IMG/VR virus record: IMGVR_UViG_3300042991_000632
Coordinates: 27,036 to 91,035 of that record
Strand: one strand, 5' to 3'
Source: a virus
Taxonomy: Duplodnaviria; Heunggongvirae; Uroviricota; Caudoviricetes
Length of the DNA: 64,000 nt
Position numbers and translations under genes: made by a program. Positions 2,775 through 54,651 of the stretch are shown in pieces (position 1 is the stretch's first letter; each line of letters opens with the position of its first letter). The notes below the pieces were generated by a model. The model was given only the letters and a program-made list of their open reading frames with translations. It did not search any database and had not been told where the DNA came from.

Positions 2775-2993
2775 ATGTACGCTATATCTAATAACAAACG
2801 AAAGTACTCTTCGACTCCCATTGTACATCTGTCGATGGGAGCGGATGGTAAACCACAGGAAGAGATTGTACTAATCTCCACCCTGAAGAAGAAGGAAGGG
2901 GACGAACTATCAGCACGCATTGTACGACTCCTGAATGATAACCTCTGGACGCAACCCGGAATGGCATCAATGTACGATCCAAATAAAAAATAA
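2775..2993 (+). CDS. hypothetical protein (72 aa)
   Basis: co-oriented ORF abutting previous stop. Confidence 0.4.
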   Translation: MYAISNNKRKYSSTPIVHLSMGADGKPQEEIVLISTLKKKEGDELSARIVRLLNDNLWTQPGMASMYDPNKK

Positions 2994-3011
2994 ATTTTGT
3001 TGATAAATTAA

Positions 3012-3045
3012 TATTGCATTTTACGAAACATATATTATTTTTACA
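3012..3045 (+). promoter_or_regulatory. promoter-like motif (TTGCATTTTACG...) upstream of macro-domain gene
   Basis: compressed variant of the recurring TTGCA/TTTACG motif; ORF-track start at 3014 is a TTG inside this motif, so ATG 3050 is preferred. Confidence 0.35.
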
Positions 3046-3049
3046 ATCG

Positions 3050-3505
3050 ATGAGAATCAAATATACCATAGGAGACGCAACAAGACCCAAGGGGGACGGC
3101 GAGAAGATCATCTGCCACATATGCAATGATATGGGTGCTTGGGGTGCAGGATTCGTTTTAGCATTGTCCGCCCGGTGGAGCGATCCTGAAGAAGCATACA
3201 GGGATACACCAAGGGAAGAACTTGAATTAGGTAACGTCATGATCGTCCCGGTAGAAGATGATATCTTAGTCGCCAACATGATTGCGCAGCATAACGTCTA
3301 CCCGGATCACAATGGTCTGCCACCCATACGTTACAATGCCGTGCGCAAATGTCTTACTGCAGTAAACAAACTGGCGGAAGAGATTGGTGCAACGCTGCAC
3401 ATGCCCCGGATAGGATCAGGACTCGCTGGGGGACGCTGGGAAGATATCGAGAAGATCATTGAAGAAGTTGTTACAGTGAACGTTACGGTATATGATCTCA
3501 AGTAA
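3050..3505 (+). CDS. macro-domain protein (ADP-ribose binding/processing)
   Basis: N-terminal YTIGDAT...ICHICNDMGAWGAG and C-terminal PRIGSGLAGGRWEDIEKII match macro-domain fold signatures. Confidence 0.7.
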   Translation: MRIKYTIGDATRPKGDGEKIICHICNDMGAWGAGFVLALSARWSDPEEAYRDTPREELELGNVMIVPVEDDILVANMIAQHNVYPDHNGLPPIRYNAVRKCLTAVNKLAEEIGATLHMPRIGSGLAGGRWEDIEKIIEEVVTVNVTVYDLK

Positions 3506-3515
3506 TACTTTAGGT

Positions 3516-3770
3516 ATGAGCAGGAATACAATATATGAAGACGATAAGATATTACTCATTGACGGTGAGGATGACATATCAGGTAAGTTTGTAATGATGT
3601 TTGACCGGGACTTGGAACATGAATCACTCGATGGTGAGGGTCTGGTAATGGACTGGTCAGAGGTCTCCGGGTATAAGATAAACTACACCGGGTATCCCAG
3701 CAGCATGACTCCTAAAACTATTGCTCATAATTACATTCAAGATAAACAACACAACTCAATAAAAAAATAA
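3516..3770 (+). CDS. hypothetical protein (84 aa)
   Basis: ORF; start moved to second ATG to avoid overlap with macro gene stop. Confidence 0.4.
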   Translation: MSRNTIYEDDKILLIDGEDDISGKFVMMFDRDLEHESLDGEGLVMDWSEVSGYKINYTGYPSSMTPKTIAHNYIQDKQHNSIKK

Positions 3771-3797
3771 CATGGATCACAATAATATACTATCTTT

Positions 3798-4211
3798 ATG
3801 CAGAGGGAACTTTTACTATCACCTGACTTCATCTTGCCTAACCACACTTCAGAGTTATCAAAGGCAGAAGACATTATTGAAAAACTAAAAACCAGATTAA
3901 AGCGAATACAAGAAACTAAAAGCATTACCGATAAGAAACATACTGAACTGTATGAGGAAGCAATCATTGTGCTTGATTACGTTGGTAGATTGTCCACCCC
4001 GGTCTTCGAGATCGAAGAAACACTTGAGAAAATGTACATACTCAAATATCCTAAAGCACCAGCATTGTCCAAGAAACTATTCTGGGATCATTATGATGAT
4101 CTTCACCATCCTTACACAATACTAAAGAACCGTTGCTTCAGAATACTTGAAGACCTTGATAAAGAATTCCAGAAACGTATGAAGCGTAATCCACCCAACT
4201 GGAATATATAA
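3798..4211 (+). CDS. hypothetical protein (137 aa)
   Basis: co-oriented ORF followed by hairpin terminator. Confidence 0.5.
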   Translation: MQRELLLSPDFILPNHTSELSKAEDIIEKLKTRLKRIQETKSITDKKHTELYEEAIIVLDYVGRLSTPVFEIEETLEKMYILKYPKAPALSKKLFWDHYDDLHHPYTILKNRCFRILEDLDKEFQKRMKRNPPNWNI

Positions 4212-4254
4212 TATTGTTTGTCTGTCTGTTTGTTTTTCTTTTTTCATTGTCCGA

Positions 4255-4288
4255 AGTCCCTGTGCTTAATGTACGGGGACTTTTATTT
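4255..4288 (+). terminator. rho-independent terminator
   Basis: AGTCCCTGT-N-ACGGGGACT hairpin followed by TTTTATTTT. Confidence 0.65.
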
Positions 4289-4304
4289 TACACAATGTTC
4301 AAAA

Positions 4305-4620
4305 TATAATTGTACGTTTATTATATTGTCCAGATAGCAATATCCTATTGTACAGTTTTTATTTAAGAACCCTATTGTACGCATGGAAATTCTTCATGGA
4401 CATAATGTCCATGCGTGTGTCCATGATATTGTCCAGATAAATCTTCAGACCTGATTGTACAGTTTTTATTTAAGAATCATTGTCAACGCTATTGTCCGAG
4501 GTTGAATCATTTAAACTTAATAATTGTCCAACCTTCATGGCAATAAACATAACCCAACTTAGTAAAGAAAATCCTACACAGAAAAGTGCGTCACTCAAAT
4601 AAATCCTATTGTCCGAGTCC
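4305..4620. repeat. iteron cluster: >=9 copies of ATTGT(A/C)C core plus two longer direct repeats
   Basis: CTATTGTACAGTTTTTATTTAAGAA at ~4345 and TGATTGTACAGTTTTTATTTAAGAA at ~4452; CTATTGTCCGAG at ~4490 and ~4605; further ATTGTAC/ATTGTCC copies. Confidence 0.65.
4394..4412. repeat. perfect 9-1-9 palindrome CATGGACATAATGTCCATG
   Basis: read directly from sequence; embedded in the iteron cluster. Confidence 0.7.
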
Positions 4621-4880
4621 CTGACAAGATAAAATGAATATGCCAGCGATGCCAACACTCCAACCAAATAAATGTATAACCCTAATGACATGTTGCAGAA
4701 ACTTATTATTATAAATAAATACGGCTATAACATTTTTTAAAATACTGATAGCCGTTAAAAAAATATAATAAACAATTGACGCAACATGGCTTAAAGGTTG
4801 ACCAGACTTTGCAACAAATTTATTCTGATCAGTCGTTTTATAAATTTTTATAATTTCAGTTTTCTAAAATAAAATTATTG

Positions 4881-4960
4881 GGGAGACGATGAACGTGGGG
4901 GGCAGACGTTTTCCGCCATTTTTCCCCACAATCCCCCACCAACGTTGTACGTACAGCGTC
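4881..4960. other. GC-rich structured element inside AT-rich intergenic region
   Basis: GGGGAGACG...AACGTGGGGGG...CCCCACAATCCCCCACCAACGTTGTACGTACAG; long-range complementarity AACGTGGGGG / CCCCCACCAACGTT and GTACGTAC palindrome. Confidence 0.35.
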
Positions 4961-5153
4961 TAACTATCTGATACTCAATGTCTATAAATTTTTATTAATA
5001 AGTACAAAAAGTTACATAAAATTATAAATCAGGTACGATAACATATAATTATAGTACATATAAACATCTTAGTAAAGTACTATGAGACTGTCAATTATAT
5101 TTAAATGCTTATAACACAATTACTTATATAACATATTTAACTACTATAAATAA

Positions 5154-5185
5154 CAAAAAAATCCCCGTCATTACTGGCGGGGAAA
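5154..5185 (-). terminator. rho-independent terminator (minus strand)
   Basis: TCCCCG-N10-CGGGGA hairpin with A7 on plus strand (T-run on minus) just downstream of GHKL gene stop. Confidence 0.65.
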
Positions 5186-5218
5186 TTATACTATTACAAT
5201 AAGATAATTTCGATAGTC

Positions 5219-6856
5219 TTATCTATATATTTTATCTTTCAGGTAGTCGCTCCAAGATATCATGAAGTTATCTATGAATGCATATTTATCCTCATGGTCT
5301 ATGTCACCATTAAATTCTTTTATCTTGTCGAAGATATTATACAGGGTACTGAACTGAGCAAGCACCGATGTATATATGACATCAATGAGTGCTTTCTTAC
5401 CCATGAGGTTCAGTTTAGTGAATCTATCGACATAGAATTTATGGTCAAGGTTCAACTGGATTTCGTATTTAGTTCCGCCTTTGTAAATAGGTTTAAAGAA
5501 ACTACCTCTTTCTCCGGCATTAGAATACGTAATTGTATAAGGTCTGTTCTTACTGCCTTGTGGACGACCACTGGTCTTCTTTTCTTTTTCGACATCAGTT
5601 GTAGTATCATCGGTAGGTTTATCAACTTCAACAGTTGGTTTTTCCTTTTCCAGTTTTTCATCAGCAATGAACTTAGGAAAGTTAGGGTTTATCATATCGT
5701 CTTGAATTATATCATCAACGTCTTTATCGTTAACCCCGGCATTGATTTCTATCTCCTTGCTCTTTGCTCTTTTGTATGACATGCCATTAAAGGTTTTCAC
5801 ATCCTGACGTATCACATCAAGGATTGCTTGCATCGGGTCAATAGCAATCTTCTTATTATCTATACCAAAATACTTATCAAATTTCGAGTTGTATCTTAGT
5901 TCGGCACGGAAGAAGTTAGAGTGAGGATGTTTTGTGAACAGTTCAAATGTTCTTGCTCTTACTATCTGTCTGTTGTTACGCAAGACATAGATACCCTGAT
6001 TGGGAACATTTGGTTCAATTGGGTTTACACCGTTTTTATCTCCGTTGCTTGCTTTAGCATCTGCGGAGACATGGTAGAAGTCCATATGGAATATAACTTC
6101 TTCACCATCGATTACGACCTTATACTCATTTGATTCTTCATCGTTAAGTCTGTCTGTACCTTTAAGGTTAGTACACATCGGGTCAACTGGTTCAACTTTG
6201 ATTACCTTTTGTTTCAGACCTGAGAGTACGTAGAAAGATACCTTGTCATCGTTTTTCTTTGTAGAAAGCAGGTAACGATAATATTCTCCGACCTTACGGA
6301 TAGTCATTGAAGTTACGCTTTGTGAGTTTTTGTTCTTAACTTTATCCAGTTCATTAAGTTCCAGATAAGTTCCGGTGGAGTCACCAGCATAGGTAAGAAA
6401 CTTTGTGATTTCAGCATCATCAGACGGTCTTACTTCGGGAAAGTCCCAAGTATTGTTAATGATACCGAGTTTACTGTCATAGACAGCAGTGAGGTAATTA
6501 CCATCAGCATGTTTAGTTATGATGGTGAATTTTCTTGCGAGTGAAAGACATGCTGCCTTTAATCCGCTTCCGTAGTTGCCAAATTCTTCGCCATGTTCAG
6601 AATTCTTTCCGGTCTCTGATCCCAAGCGAAGTGCTTCGATAAGTGTTTCCTCTGTCATACCGCATCCGTTGTCTGCGATAAACATCGAATCTGCTTCGAA
6701 GTTAAAATGGCTGATGATTCTTTTGTTCTCGATTTCGTTTAATGCATCGAAGGAGTTATCACATAATTCCCTGAATGCTTTGTCGAAGTCGTAACCATGA
6801 TCTCTCAGTGAGAGCAAGTACCGAGGATTCGGTACAAAATTCGAATTGTTTTTCAT
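5219..6856 (-). CDS. GHKL-superfamily ATPase (HATPase_c-like) with AT-hook-like GRP motif
   Basis: N-box ELCDNSFDA, G1 box DNGCGM, G2 box GNYGSGLK; KKTSGRPQGSKNRP AT-hook-like segment; no TOPRIM motif seen. Confidence 0.8.
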   Translation of the reverse strand: MKNNSNFVPNPRYLLSLRDHGYDFDKAFRELCDNSFDALNEIENKRIISHFNFEADSMFIADNGCGMTEETLIEALRLGSETGKNSEHGEEFGNYGSGLKAACLSLARKFTIITKHADGNYLTAVYDSKLGIINNTWDFPEVRPSDDAEITKFLTYAGDSTGTYLELNELDKVKNKNSQSVTSMTIRKVGEYYRYLLSTKKNDDKVSFYVLSGLKQKVIKVEPVDPMCTNLKGTDRLNDEESNEYKVVIDGEEVIFHMDFYHVSADAKASNGDKNGVNPIEPNVPNQGIYVLRNNRQIVRARTFELFTKHPHSNFFRAELRYNSKFDKYFGIDNKKIAIDPMQAILDVIRQDVKTFNGMSYKRAKSKEIEINAGVNDKDVDDIIQDDMINPNFPKFIADEKLEKEKPTVEVDKPTDDTTTDVEKEKKTSGRPQGSKNRPYTITYSNAGERGSFFKPIYKGGTKYEIQLNLDHKFYVDRFTKLNLMGKKALIDVIYTSVLAQFSTLYNIFDKIKEFNGDIDHEDKYAFIDNFMISWSDYLKDKIYR

Positions 6857-6971
6857 AATACATTAAATTTTGCGATTGAATCTATTGCGATCCAATCTGA
6901 TTAATAATAATTTTTCGATACAAAGATAAACATAATATTTAGATTTCCAAATTATTTTCAATATATTTTAT

Positions 6972-7003
6972 AAAAAAAATCCCCGGCATTTCTGACGGGG
7001 ACT
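6972..7003 (-). terminator. rho-independent terminator (minus strand)
   Basis: TCCCCGGCATTTCTGACGGGGA hairpin preceded by A8 on plus strand; isolates GHKL gene from upstream gene. Confidence 0.65.
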
Positions 7004-15174: not shown

Positions 15175-15657
15175 TTATTTTGAATTTAAAAATTTTTCCT
15201 GTTCGGTTACTATTGATTTTCTTAACCCTTCATTTAACCAATTTTGTTCAAGAAGCCATTGTAAATATTCCAAATCAAATTTAATAACTTCTGATACTGT
15301 CTTTCCTTTATATTTTCCAAAATACAAATAATCATTTTCAATTTCAATTTCTTCCCATTTTAAATTATCAATTGATTTATGAAGAGATACATCATGTTCA
15401 TTACCTGAATTATCAATCACCCATACCCATAGCGAATCCTGACCATACACATGGGACGGTTTTACGCAAATTTTATTGGCACAATATAAATTTTTTACCT
15501 CTGGATTTGGATAATTCATTATTATCAATTCCCACATAAAATCAAGATCATCACCACTTATAGTTGTGTTCACATATTTTTTCATGATTTCTTTTGCATA
15601 TGCAAAAACCTCTTTCTTTGAATTAAATTTAATTCCTTTAATTATTGTTTCTTTCAT
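15175..15657 (-). CDS. hypothetical protein (160 aa)
   Basis: co-oriented packed ORF with promoter-like motif upstream. Confidence 0.5.
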   Translation of the reverse strand: MKETIIKGIKFNSKKEVFAYAKEIMKKYVNTTISGDDLDFMWELIIMNYPNPEVKNLYCANKICVKPSHVYGQDSLWVWVIDNSGNEHDVSLHKSIDNLKWEEIEIENDYLYFGKYKGKTVSEVIKFDLEYLQWLLEQNWLNEGLRKSIVTEQEKFLNSK

Positions 15658-15828: not shown

Positions 15829-15856
15829 AAGTGGGGATGTATGGGACATCCCCGAC
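15829..15856 (-). terminator. strong hairpin / terminator-like element
   Basis: GGGGATGT-ATGG-GACATCCCC with T-rich flank on minus strand (TTTCTTTTG). Confidence 0.45.
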
Positions 15857-15968
15857 TTTCCGTACAAACCCTAAAACTAACACTATGAACCATCGAAAAA
15901 TGGTATGACAAATATACGAAATAATATTTATATTTGTCAAGTATTTTTGAAAATATTTTCAATATATT

Positions 15969-26976: not shown

Positions 26977-27228
26977 TTAATTACTCATGTTCACAAGTTG
27001 CTCCGCTTTTTTATTGAGATATTCTTTTCTTAATAGATCAGGAAACCTGAATTCACATTTTGGAACACGTCTTTCCAAAACAGATTCCAAGGCATATCTG
27101 AATCTTTTAAAATCCATACAAACCCAAGGCTGGAATAGTTGAAACTCCACAATTTGTTCGTCTGACCATGATTTCCATGCAAAACTTTCGGCAAAATCAA
27201 TACCCTGTTCTTTAGTTAAAGTTTCCAT
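26977..27228 (-). CDS. hypothetical protein (83 aa)
   Basis: co-oriented ORF ending at terminator. Confidence 0.4.
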   Translation of the reverse strand: METLTKEQGIDFAESFAWKSWSDEQIVEFQLFQPWVCMDFKRFRYALESVLERRVPKCEFRFPDLLRKEYLNKKAEQLVNMSN

Positions 27229-53572: not shown

Positions 53573-53890
53573 ATGTTATATTCGGTAAATTCGTGCTTTG
53601 ACGGATGGATAAAGACTGCCAATTTATATAAGAATAGTGATGGGTGTATTCTTGAATTTTATTCCAATCATTATACTATTAAGGTTGGTAAACATATTCA
53701 ATATGAATTATCATTGCCAAAAACGATTAGTGATTTTATTAATGATATGCATCGACTTAATATTCAACTTTATTGGACACAATGGATTGATGATAATTTT
53801 GAGCCAAAAGAATATTTGAATGTGAATGAAATTGAAGAATATTACAGAAATTTGTTGGGTAGGATGGGTAAGTCGCATGAGTTATTTTAA
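53573..53890 (+). CDS. hypothetical protein (~105 aa; start uncertain, track start 53492)
   Basis: ORF overlaps previous gene if started at 53492. Confidence 0.35.
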   Translation: MLYSVNSCFDGWIKTANLYKNSDGCILEFYSNHYTIKVGKHIQYELSLPKTISDFINDMHRLNIQLYWTQWIDDNFEPKEYLNVNEIEEYYRNLLGRMGKSHELF

Positions 53891-53931
53891 TATAATTTGG
53901 AATTTAAAAAAATAATATATATATTTGCATC

Positions 53932-54651
53932 ATGGTTAAAAATTGGGATTTGTTAACTAATATCACATTTAAGACACAGTGCTATCGTAAAAATTTCGAT
54001 ATGATAAGCACGAATGAGCATTTCATTACAGAATGTGATGGTGAAATTACATTAATGAGATTCGAACAGGAGAAGCCATTGCTTATTGTTGGTGAGTATG
54101 GATTTTCTATTTGGAATATCAAATTAGGTAATCAATTTAACGTTAATTTCAAGAATTTAATTGAAGAACATAATGAGGAAAACATATATCATGAGTTAAA
54201 TAATCTGATAAACAGAAAAAAGTTTGAACTTAATAGTTATAATAAAATAATTCTGGTGCATTCACTTGTGTTGCGTGCTGATTATCGAAAACAAGGCATA
54301 ACAGAAGAATTCACTGAGTTATTATATAGAGATTATTATAGTGATGGTGATGCAATCATAATGCTTGTTCTGCCATTTCAAAATAATCCAATCGATAAGG
54401 AATATTATATGCAAAGAAAAACTGTTCCGGTGAGACAAAATCTTAGTATTTATCAAAGTCCGTTGCAAATTTCTGCTGCTGAATATTACTCGCTTGATAC
54501 TTTAATTGGGAAAAATGATGATGAATTAAATGAATATAAGTTATTTTCGGTGGCATCAAAGTGCGGACTTAGCAGAATTGATGATTCACATTTGTTTTTA
54601 TTTTCACCGGAAAAAACAATTGAAAGAATGAATAAGAAATATAATAATTAA
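53932..54651 (+). CDS. hypothetical protein, weak GNAT-like motif
   Basis: VLRADYRKQGITEEF loosely resembles acetyltransferase motif A. Confidence 0.4.
   Translation: MVKNWDLLTNITFKTQCYRKNFDMISTNEHFITECDGEITLMRFEQEKPLLIVGEYGFSIWNIKLGNQFNVNFKNLIEEHNEENIYHELNNLINRKKFELNSYNKIILVHSLVLRADYRKQGITEEFTELLYRDYYSDGDAIIMLVLPFQNNPIDKEYYMQRKTVPVRQNLSIYQSPLQISAAEYYSLDTLIGKNDDELNEYKLFSVASKCGLSRIDDSHLFLFSPEKTIERMNKKYNN

Follow-up and report, generated by a model that had tools for sequence, protein, structure and literature searches.

Organization of the locus

The region described here lies at the junction of two converging gene blocks in a 64,000-nucleotide (nt) stretch of tailed-phage DNA (Caudoviricetes; IMG/VR record IMGVR_UViG_3300042991_000632, positions 27,036 to 91,035). 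The whole stretch is referred to as the window, and coordinates without a locus label are window positions. The plus-strand block, which is of the rII type, ends with the gene of a 137-amino-acid (137-aa) protein, and the minus-strand block ends with the gene of a GHKL ATPase. An array of short, uniformly oriented copies of the motif ATTGTMC (M is A or C) fills the spacer between the two, in agreement with a first-pass annotation of the sequence that had placed a repeat-rich region at the convergence of plus and minus gene blocks. An intrinsic terminator, a small membrane-protein gene on the minus strand (open reading frame 73, ORF73) and a second conserved non-coding module are located in the same region. 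The coordinates of all features are listed in Table 1.

Table 1. Features at the convergence of the two gene blocks. Positions refer to the window unless a related locus (L007 and so on) is named.
Feature	Position	Strand	Remarks
Gene of the 137-aa protein, last gene of the plus (rII-type) block	3798-4211	+	78 homologues found
Motif copy ATTGTCC	4246-4252	+	immediately 5' of the terminator stem
Intrinsic terminator, hairpin and T-run	4253-4283	+	13 pairs, 6 of them G-C, T-rich tail (terminator scan)
Motif copy AATGTAC	4268-4274	+	terminator loop and beginning of the 3' arm
Interspersed polar array, Y-A-W-TGT-M-C-R	4309-4614	+	copies from 4309 on, including the variant at 4478
Super-unit of ~65 nt, copy 1	4320-4382	+	ATTGTCCAGATA, N, CTATTGTACAGTTTTTATTTAAGAA, N, TATTGTAC; repeats D1 and D4
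Hairpin/palindrome between the super-units	4379-4416		outer arms ACGCATGGA (4379-4387) and TCCATGCGT (4408-4416); I22
Super-unit of ~65 nt, copy 2	4423-4500	+	right end enters the 3' end of ORF73
ORF73, small membrane-protein gene	4470-4691	-	two hydrophobic helices; conserved in 8 phages
Hairpin ACGGCTAT / ATAGCCGT	4721-4755		lies 30 nt before the start of ORF73; the loop is AT-rich; I14
Bacteroidota-type -7 box TAAATTTG	4815-4822	-	placed to drive ORF73; sole perfect box in 4150-5300
Separate conserved module, four parts	4836-4980	+	recurs in relatives and other phages
Module part: AT-rich promoter-like block TTTATAAATTTTTATAAT and near -7 box	4837-4854 and 4856-4864		
Module part: GC-rich island with GTGGGGGG box (GTGGGGG)	4880-4970		
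Module part: C-tracts CCCCAC / CCCCCACC			3-4 copies ~10 bp apart in L023, L030 and L032
Module part: anchor CAGCGTCTAACTATCTGATACTCAA, also given as CAGCGTNTAACTNNNTGATNATCAA	4954-4978		
AT-rich, easily melted DNA	4970-5160		GC 0.19
Intrinsic terminator of the minus block	5153-5183	-	CCCCGCCAGTAATGACGGGG, then a T-run on the minus strand; from the sequence and weak terminator-like Rfam alignments
GHKL (MORC / MzaB-like) ATPase gene, last of the minus block	5219-6856	-	right-hand boundary, outside the element
Optional gene of a 103-113-aa protein	L023 5443-5769; L008 586-897; L034 4455-4766; L035 4449-4775		also in L007, L011, L013 and L032

The window is part of the genome of a large tailed phage. 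It encodes a rIIB-type protein (222-1388, PHROG matches to 2.7e-33), a Dda-like helicase, an RNA ligase and tail-fibre proteins, and relatives of the phage carry the Pfam family Phage_T4_rIIB. The G+C content (GC) is 33%. By a crude count about 92% of the window lies in ORFs, consistent with its earlier description as gene-dense; its largest gap spans 527 nt (4692-5218). A megablast search of 3000-7000 against 50,697 phage records gave no match; no close relative of the phage has been sequenced. More distant ones were located via their proteins in IMG/VR, JGI, ENA and Logan. Their contigs are 208-363 kb long, which indicates a jumbo-phage lineage. Across the region, the window has a 100% identical counterpart in a Logan contig from SRR35210686. 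For comparison, 21 non-redundant loci with a homologue of the 137-aa gene (47-95% protein identity) were collected.

Judging from sequence signals, the host is very probably a member of the Bacteroidota. Many genes of the window are preceded by TAnnTTTG -7 boxes (TAtaTTTG) and AT-rich leaders without a Shine-Dalgarno sequence (e.g. 15850-15968, 36832-36929 and 53820-53934), and the combination of these boxes with the absence of Shine-Dalgarno sequences points to such a host. The assignment is further supported by the closest matches of the Dda-like helicase, which are from crAss-like and Bacteroides phages, and by a PorP_SprF gene in the relative L034.

The polar motif array

ATTGTMC is not in overall excess in the window (19 copies, 24 expected). 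Sixteen of the 19 copies are located on the plus strand within 2820-4614, ten of them within 4246-4614, and just three are found in the other 60 kb. At least nine copies of ATTGT(A/C)C had been annotated originally. The ten exact copies in 4246-4614, all on the plus strand, bear this out and are far above chance: 20,000 shuffles of 4212-4700 yielded a mean count of 0.09 and a maximum of 2. If the variant AATGTMC is included, the region contains 12 copies (4246, 4268, 4309, 4325, 4347, 4374, 4404, 4428, 4454, 4491, 4523 and 4608). An additional variant copy, ATTGTCA, is present at 4478-4484.

The flanking bases were used to define the site. In 144 copies of the 6-mer [AT]TGT[AC]C from relatives, the base at -1, which is not part of the search pattern, is A in 127, and the base after the 6-mer (+6) is a purine in 123. 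This constraint on bases that were not searched for indicates that the real site is Y-A-W-T-G-T-M-C-R.

The designation as an iteron array is not supported. The copies are interspersed with irregular gaps of 16-85 nt, and Tandem Repeats Finder reported no array in the region. Neither periodicity nor helical phasing of the motif is significant (best period 12-13.5 bp, power 8.7 with a null 95th percentile of 9.6). The GC of the array (0.32 for 4212-4469) is average for the window. Scans for CRISPR-like or tandem arrays, transfer RNA (tRNA) and transfer-messenger RNA genes found none. The motif was also considered as a host promoter; this was rejected, as it matches neither the TAnnTTTG -7 box nor the sigma-70 pair. 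A scan of IMG/VR for three spaced motif copies was uninformative, since among the matches listed most were unrelated coding tandem repeats, and a literature search on the motif returned nothing relevant.

Conservation and density gradient in related phages

In the 1 kb after the 137-aa gene of the 21 loci, [AT]TGT[AC]C has a density of 8.1 copies per kb on the plus strand and 1.9 per kb on the minus strand. The background in the remainder of these loci is 0.95 and 0.75 per kb, respectively. A gradient becomes visible in counts of the 7-mer A[AT]TGT[AC]C from 11 loci aligned at the stop codon of the 137-aa gene. The plus-strand density is ~1 per kb at -4.5 to -2.5 kb, 3.3 per kb at -1.5 kb and 4.7 per kb at -0.5 kb. 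It reaches 9.1 per kb within 500 nt past this codon, falls to 0.75 per kb in the next 500 nt and is ~0 beyond +1 kb. The minus-strand density stays at ~0.3 per kb, about the value expected from base composition.

The number of copies per phage, counted with the same 7-mer (6-mer for L009 and L010), ranges from 2 to ~21. There are 17 copies in L008, 15 in L027, 10 each in L028 and L030 and 3-8 in most others. The copies of L008 lie on both sides of its ORF73 homologue. In L009 (~960-1010) and L010 (~3590-3640), three GAGCCAATT repeats follow the 137-aa gene, at the place where the other phages have the ATTGTMC array.

The sequence between the motif copies is not conserved among the relatives. 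The 137-aa gene of L027 is 94% identical at the nucleotide level (95% for the protein) and the array core is 57% identical, with several indels (insertions/deletions). Of the repeats listed in the first-pass annotation, the motif is conserved, with the same position and orientation in many relatives, and the arrangement of two 25-mers and the palindrome described below are not.

Nucleotide-level constraint within genes

The motif extends into the coding DNA upstream of the array. The 137-aa gene contains in-frame copies at 3989, 4031 and 4064. Of 15 distinct genes for the 137-aa protein, 7, from at least three lineages, encode its invariant GRLS sequence with AGA TTG TCC and thereby contain the motif. 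In the genome TTG provides 16% of the Leu codons and TCC 5% of the Ser codons, and the retention of these rare codons at GRLS indicates selection at the nucleotide level. The ORF at 2775-2993 (+) has in-frame copies at 2820, 2865 and 2919, which are 45-54 nt apart and encode conserved Ile-Val pairs; the counterparts in L023 are at 3692, 3738 and 3783. Part of the upstream signal falls in conserved protein motifs. Between the two phages this small upstream ORF has a Val codon that goes from GTA to GTC, followed by a His to Arg replacement, and it still retains the motif.

A comparable pattern is found on the opposite strand. The copies at 4478 (variant), 4491, 4523 and 4608 lie antisense within the 3' half of ORF73. 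The C-terminal tails of the ORF73 homologues are otherwise not conserved and repeatedly carry [ST]DN, the antisense of ATTGTCC. The C-terminal tail of ORF73 itself seems to owe its sequence to the antisense reading of the motif array.

Proposed role of the array

A consensus that validates itself, strand polarity, a fixed position, fast turnover of the spacers and retention within genes together argue for a selected array of recognition sites and against a fixed structure or neutral debris. The preferred interpretation, held tentatively and at somewhat less than even confidence, is that a strand-polar array of putative recognition sites marks the 3' boundary of the rII-type block and that its first copies are built into the terminator. 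Any statement that goes further than selected, polar sites arrayed at this boundary is interpretation. A sequence-specific factor, either from the phage or from the Bacteroidota host, would read the Y-A-W-T-G-T-M-C-R sites, and selection would act on the number and orientation of the sites and not on a fixed structure. The bound factor would act on the DNA as a polar boundary or "stop", for example as a roadblock or insulator where transcription and/or replication converge, or as an anchor.

Several observations weigh against this proposal. Some relatives have only 2-4 copies (L005, L001 and L007), which implies that a large array is dispensable. Only two copies are present downstream of the gene in L009 and L010, with plus-strand enrichment still found upstream in L010. 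The shortage of the motif elsewhere in the window (7 copies, 18.8 expected) is not repeated in the relatives (58 copies, 58.4 expected), and for this reason motif avoidance is not relied on. The association of the motif with T-runs is not significant overall (25 of 126, with 19 ± 4 expected). No reader protein was identified, and the protein encoded next to the array is a plain helical bundle. Finally, sense-strand polarity and enrichment in the upstream mRNA suit a role at the RNA level equally well.

Two neighbouring proteins were considered as readers of the motif. The AlphaFold model of the 137-aa protein is an all-helical three-helix bundle with a predicted local distance difference test (pLDDT) score of 93.6. 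No PDB fold match below E 0.1 and no significant sequence match were obtained. The protein was rejected as the motif binder on the basis of this confident, plain three-helix bundle without a match to a DNA-binding fold, and the label "predicted DNA-binding transcriptional regulator" that one JGI entry gives to the family is unsupported. The GHKL protein had been suggested as a DNA-binding candidate in the first-pass annotation. It adjoins the array only in the window and in L032 (5403-7010, minus strand; the sole homologue at this place among the relatives examined), and most array-bearing relatives do not have it there. The protein matches Pfam HATPase_c_3 (E 2.5e-17) and NCBIfam MzaB (E 1.9e-14, below the curated cut-off). 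No relative was found in IMG/VR, and the matches in faecal phage contigs are only weak. An AT-hook-like GRP stretch is located near residue 440, and the ATPase represents a defence-system-like protein encoded by a phage.

The block-end terminator and a possible role in RNA

The terminator begins 42 nt past the stop codon of the 137-aa gene and has the features of an intrinsic terminator. Its sequence is identical in L027. A motif copy occupies the terminator loop and 3' arm in nine phages (the window, L027, L028, L023, L032, L035, L007, L008 and L014). On the minus strand, neither the terminator scan nor inspection of the sequence revealed an intrinsic terminator inside the array, so transcripts of that strand have no intrinsic stop there. 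A related arrangement is seen at the terminator after rIIB in L001 (3058-3100) and L003 (11281-11330), where AATGTAC is found in the loop/3' arm and AATGTCC nearby. The rIIB terminator of the window itself does not carry the motif in its loop or 3' arm.

These hairpins bear on the possibility that the motif is an element of the plus-strand transcript. An RNA-binding protein or nuclease would read it and thereby tune termination at the block end, in the manner of TRAP or HutP, or the stability of the rII-block mRNA. All copies read in the sense direction of the upstream block, through whose coding region the enrichment continues. One copy just 5' of the terminator stem and one in the loop/3' arm, found in nine phages, would fit such a function, as would the recurrence of this pattern (a motif followed by a motif-bearing hairpin) at 4374-4416 and at the post-rIIB terminator of L001 and L003. 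However, most copies are located past a strong terminator, so that read-through would be needed to transcribe them, and in L008 they flank an ORF73 that is oriented in the opposite direction. Furthermore, the motif bases are not preferentially unpaired in the predicted folds of seven arrays, and the overall association with T-runs lacks significance. A role in RNA is thus considered unlikely. A protein-sponge RNA of the CsrB/RsmZ type was rejected, as the predicted folds of the seven arrays give the motif bases a mean unpaired probability equal to or lower than that of the other bases on both strands.

Larger repeats, the palindrome and sequence turnover

The two 25-mers reported initially are present at 4345-4369 and 4452-4476 with two differences. 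They are part of a longer duplication (D1, 36 nt with 83% identity; D4, 17 nt with 94% identity) that forms two super-units of ~65 nt. A super-unit is recognizable in L003 at 15365-15430. The 12-mer CTATTGTCCGAG was likewise found twice, at 4489-4500 and 4606-4617 (D10). The perfect palindrome CATGGACATAATGTCCATG exists as described, with its position corrected from 4394-4412 to 4395-4413. It consists of 9-nt arms around a central A and contains inverted near-motif half-sites, GGACAT and ATGTCC. The palindrome is not present in L027, L028, L023 or L032. In L027 its place is taken by a different stretch with three copies of ATTGTAC. Since it is replaced in a phage whose 137-aa protein is 95% identical, the palindrome is not a conserved feature. 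Analogous short hairpins of the form GGACA-N-TGTCC occur in L003, L005, L008 and L030.

The junction that follows the 137-aa gene forms a hot spot for indels. Eight relatives have an optional gene for a membrane protein of 103-113 aa between the 137-aa gene and the terminator, which is missing in the window, and motif copies are found on both of its flanks. The array might be a functionless by-product of plasticity, composed of terminator-derived repeats or scars at an indel-prone junction and similar to the PeSL terminator/promoter cassettes of T4-like phages. The motif-flanked insertions and the fast turnover of the array by indels are in line with this view. In L030, the 23-mer ATTGTAC-NN-TTTTTATTTAAGAA resembles the 3' arm and T-tail of the local terminator, and PeSLs have been described as mediators of such indels (PMC4122927). 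The array also shares with PeSLs the link between repeats and a terminator stem-loop, the indel-prone junction and the T4-like rII neighbourhood (PMC4122927), and it flanks a gene insertion/deletion between close relatives.

On the other hand, the motif is kept where the neighbouring protein is only 47-60% identical, and neutral DNA should be randomized at this distance. It is also kept in coding DNA against codon preference, and its strand polarity is 4:1 to 6:1. PeSL cassettes comprise ~70 bp and occupy many loci, whereas the unit of the array is a 9-mer confined to one locus (2820-4614) and not distributed over many intergenic sites. There is no host promoter box in the array; TAnnTTTG is absent from both strands of 4212-4470. 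A by-product of plasticity is therefore regarded as quite improbable.

ORF73 and its surroundings

The interval 4212-5218 is not essentially non-coding, as had been assumed, because ORF73 is a conserved gene. It is called as a gene on the 100% identical Logan contig, and tblastn detected matches at the same position in L015 (E 1.5e-7) and L008 (E 9e-6). An alignment from eight phages yields the conserved pattern IY..G...Y....RD.D..I..EL....SW....L.VG. No match to Pfam, PHROG or NCBIfam was found. Coding capacity in relatives had been named as an observation that would speak against the original proposal. ORF73 homologues are indeed present in eight phages, and several relatives contain the 103-113-aa gene in addition.

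The pairing of the hairpin upstream of ORF73 is kept in relatives with different stem sequences, ACGACTA/TAGTCGT in L027 (~1365-1400) and TATCACA/TGTGATA in L030 (~1690-1740). The counterpart in L032 (~4985-5001) is GAGAGG/CCTCTC between A- and T-runs and resembles a bidirectional terminator. The L027 stem includes a double change from G-C to A-T.

Farther to the left in the window, a 163-aa ORF on the minus strand (2788-3279) overlaps the gene of a phosphatase-like protein (3014-3505, plus strand; PHROG 1.5e-34) and is probably spurious.

The replication-origin question

The first-pass annotation had raised the possibility of a replication origin. In an iteron-type origin, an initiator would bind the direct repeats and melt the AT-rich DNA nearby. 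In its favour, direct repeats of one orientation are situated within the window's largest non-coding stretch. At a distance of 370 nt from the array there is one of the least stable 100-bp windows, and a hairpin with conserved pairing is close by. A precedent, of unproven role, is T4 oriE, where 12-nt direct repeats are clustered and small ORFs are present (PMC3016281). Similar repeats occur at the syntenic place in relatives of T4, as is the case for the array (PMC3016281). The iteron clusters of phage and plasmid origins (T4 oriE, the lambda origin, R6K gamma) resemble the array in that non-coding DNA with embedded small ORFs holds a cluster of direct repeats in one orientation and AT-rich DNA is in the vicinity.

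There are also differences. The core of the motif comprises merely 7-9 bp and is spaced at 16-85 nt without significant periodicity, whereas iterons are typically 12-22 bp long and regular. Between 2 and 21 copies are present, and their arrangement differs even where the neighbouring protein is 95% identical. The motif spreads with the same polarity through ~4 kb of coding DNA. No initiator family was matched by the neighbouring proteins (the 137-aa bundle, the two-helix ORF73 protein and the GHKL ATPase) in Pfam, PHROG or NCBIfam. DnaA boxes (TTWTNCACA) do not cluster: the region has one relaxed match (4286) and the window has 16, with 17.6 expected. The array was said to be flanked by AT-rich DNA. 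AT-rich DNA does exist at 4970-5160, but ORF73 and a GC-rich island separate it from the array, which itself is of average composition.

The skew analysis proposed with the original annotation likewise disagrees with an origin. The cumulative GC skew has its maximum at this locus, which is also a site of transcription convergence, and its minimum at ~49 kb, at divergent genes. By the usual convention, the origin would be located at ~49 kb and the array would correspond to a terminus-like point. Phage skew mostly follows the direction of transcription, however. In T4, the more active origins are found near transcriptional divergence, and even the oriE iterons have no proven role (PMC3016281). 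An iteron-type origin is thus judged quite unlikely. It keeps some weight because phage skew mostly tracks transcription and very unstable DNA is located within 400 nt. Of the two functions initially suggested, an operator or binding-site cluster agrees with the recurrence of the motif at the same place and in the same orientation; a replication origin is at odds with the skew, the spacing and the lack of an initiator and of a DnaA-box cluster.

The right-hand module and the contig ends

To the right of ORF73 there is a conserved module that is separate from the array. Copies are found in L023 (6450-6640), L032 (5073-5260), L030 (1946-2096) and, in part, L027, and its presence in L023 and L032 contrasts with the small number of array copies in these phages. 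The module occurs also in other phage contexts, L037 (5876-6060)/L038 and L039 (minus strand, 6479 and upstream), in one case beside tRNA genes, and in two contigs of Bacteroidota metagenome-assembled genomes, L160 (1293) and L162 (1917). The adjacent AT-rich segment includes the fourth least stable 100-bp window of the 64 kb (top 0.1%), and comparable stretches are present elsewhere in the window.

In the T4 origins oriF and oriG, which are of the R-loop type, a promoter is followed by G-clusters and then by very unstable DNA (PMC3016281). The layout of the module could be that of an R-loop-type origin or, equally, of a small-RNA gene. If any part of the 1-kb region is an origin, the module is a better candidate than the repeats. 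Covariance-model searches of 3800-5600 against Rfam 15 gave only terminator-like matches below threshold, and an Rfam search of four related loci detected tRNAs only. As RNA, the GC island is unremarkable in single-sequence folding (fold z-scores of only -1.5 and -1.8).

Three contigs end in this module, near 4870-4940 in window coordinates. One phage was assembled twice, by JGI and in Logan, and the resulting contigs L030 (end at 2096) and L031 (end at 1464) terminate at most 3 nt apart within the C-tracts. The end of L027 (1447) coincides with the promoter-like block. The ends of L027, L030 and L031 could represent either an assembly branch point or a physical end.

The array could also serve as a DNA-end or traffic signal, for instance as a Chi-like array that stops an exonuclease coming from the right, as a pac or terminase-loading site, or as an injection stop similar to the T5 iss. 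The strict polarity of the motif and its density gradient, which ends in a sharp boundary with no copies beyond, speak for such a signal. The coinciding ends of L030 and L031, ~450 nt to the right of the array, are weak evidence in its favour. Furthermore, a large repeat- and palindrome-rich region at the end of an early-type block is reminiscent of the T5 iss (10.1101/866236), whose position is conserved while the neighbouring genes vary (10.1101/866236). The likeness to the T5 iss is one of sequence layout. The array has no paired DnaA boxes and no long inverted repeats, unlike the T5 iss, and its arrangement turns over whereas the iss elements keep their order. In addition, the window and the contigs L023 and L032 continue across the region without a break, and neither a DnaA-box cluster nor a terminase gene is found nearby. 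Such a signal is very unlikely.

Relation to known systems and implications

The array belongs to no described family. It falls in the general class of direct-repeat binding arrays and is distinguished by its polarity and gradient. From iteron origins it is set apart by its short core of 7-9 bp, irregular spacing, 2-21 copies, the absence of an adjacent initiator, its location at a convergence and skew maximum and its spread over kilobases.

Chi, KOPS and Ter/Tus are polar chromosomal motifs or polar protein barriers. The array can be likened to them as a strand-specific short word with uniform orientation on one side of a convergence site and a density that rises to a defined point. It differs in that the enrichment is restricted to ~5 kb and no opposed set exists on the far side, apart from two weak copies. 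The motif might be a polar "orienting" or "stop" word of this clade of Bacteroidota jumbo phages, a counterpart of the Chi, KOPS and Ter signals or of the T5 injection-stop site, although this idea is speculative and has little probability. The rising density and the terminal array would then tell a translocating machine, such as an exonuclease, the replisome, RNA polymerase or the DNA-entry apparatus, where to stop. If this were true, the array would be a functional genome boundary that is invisible to gene annotation.

For the annotation of phage genomes, the locus illustrates that repeats together with AT-rich DNA are insufficient for calling an origin. The module at 4836-4980 recurs in several unrelated phage contexts and adds another unexplained non-coding element. 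The cis-acting sites of uncultivated jumbo phages, including origins, packaging sites and boundaries, are almost unknown. A polar motif that is conserved within a lineage offers a handle for finding the factor that reads the DNA or RNA and for learning how converging gene blocks are kept apart.

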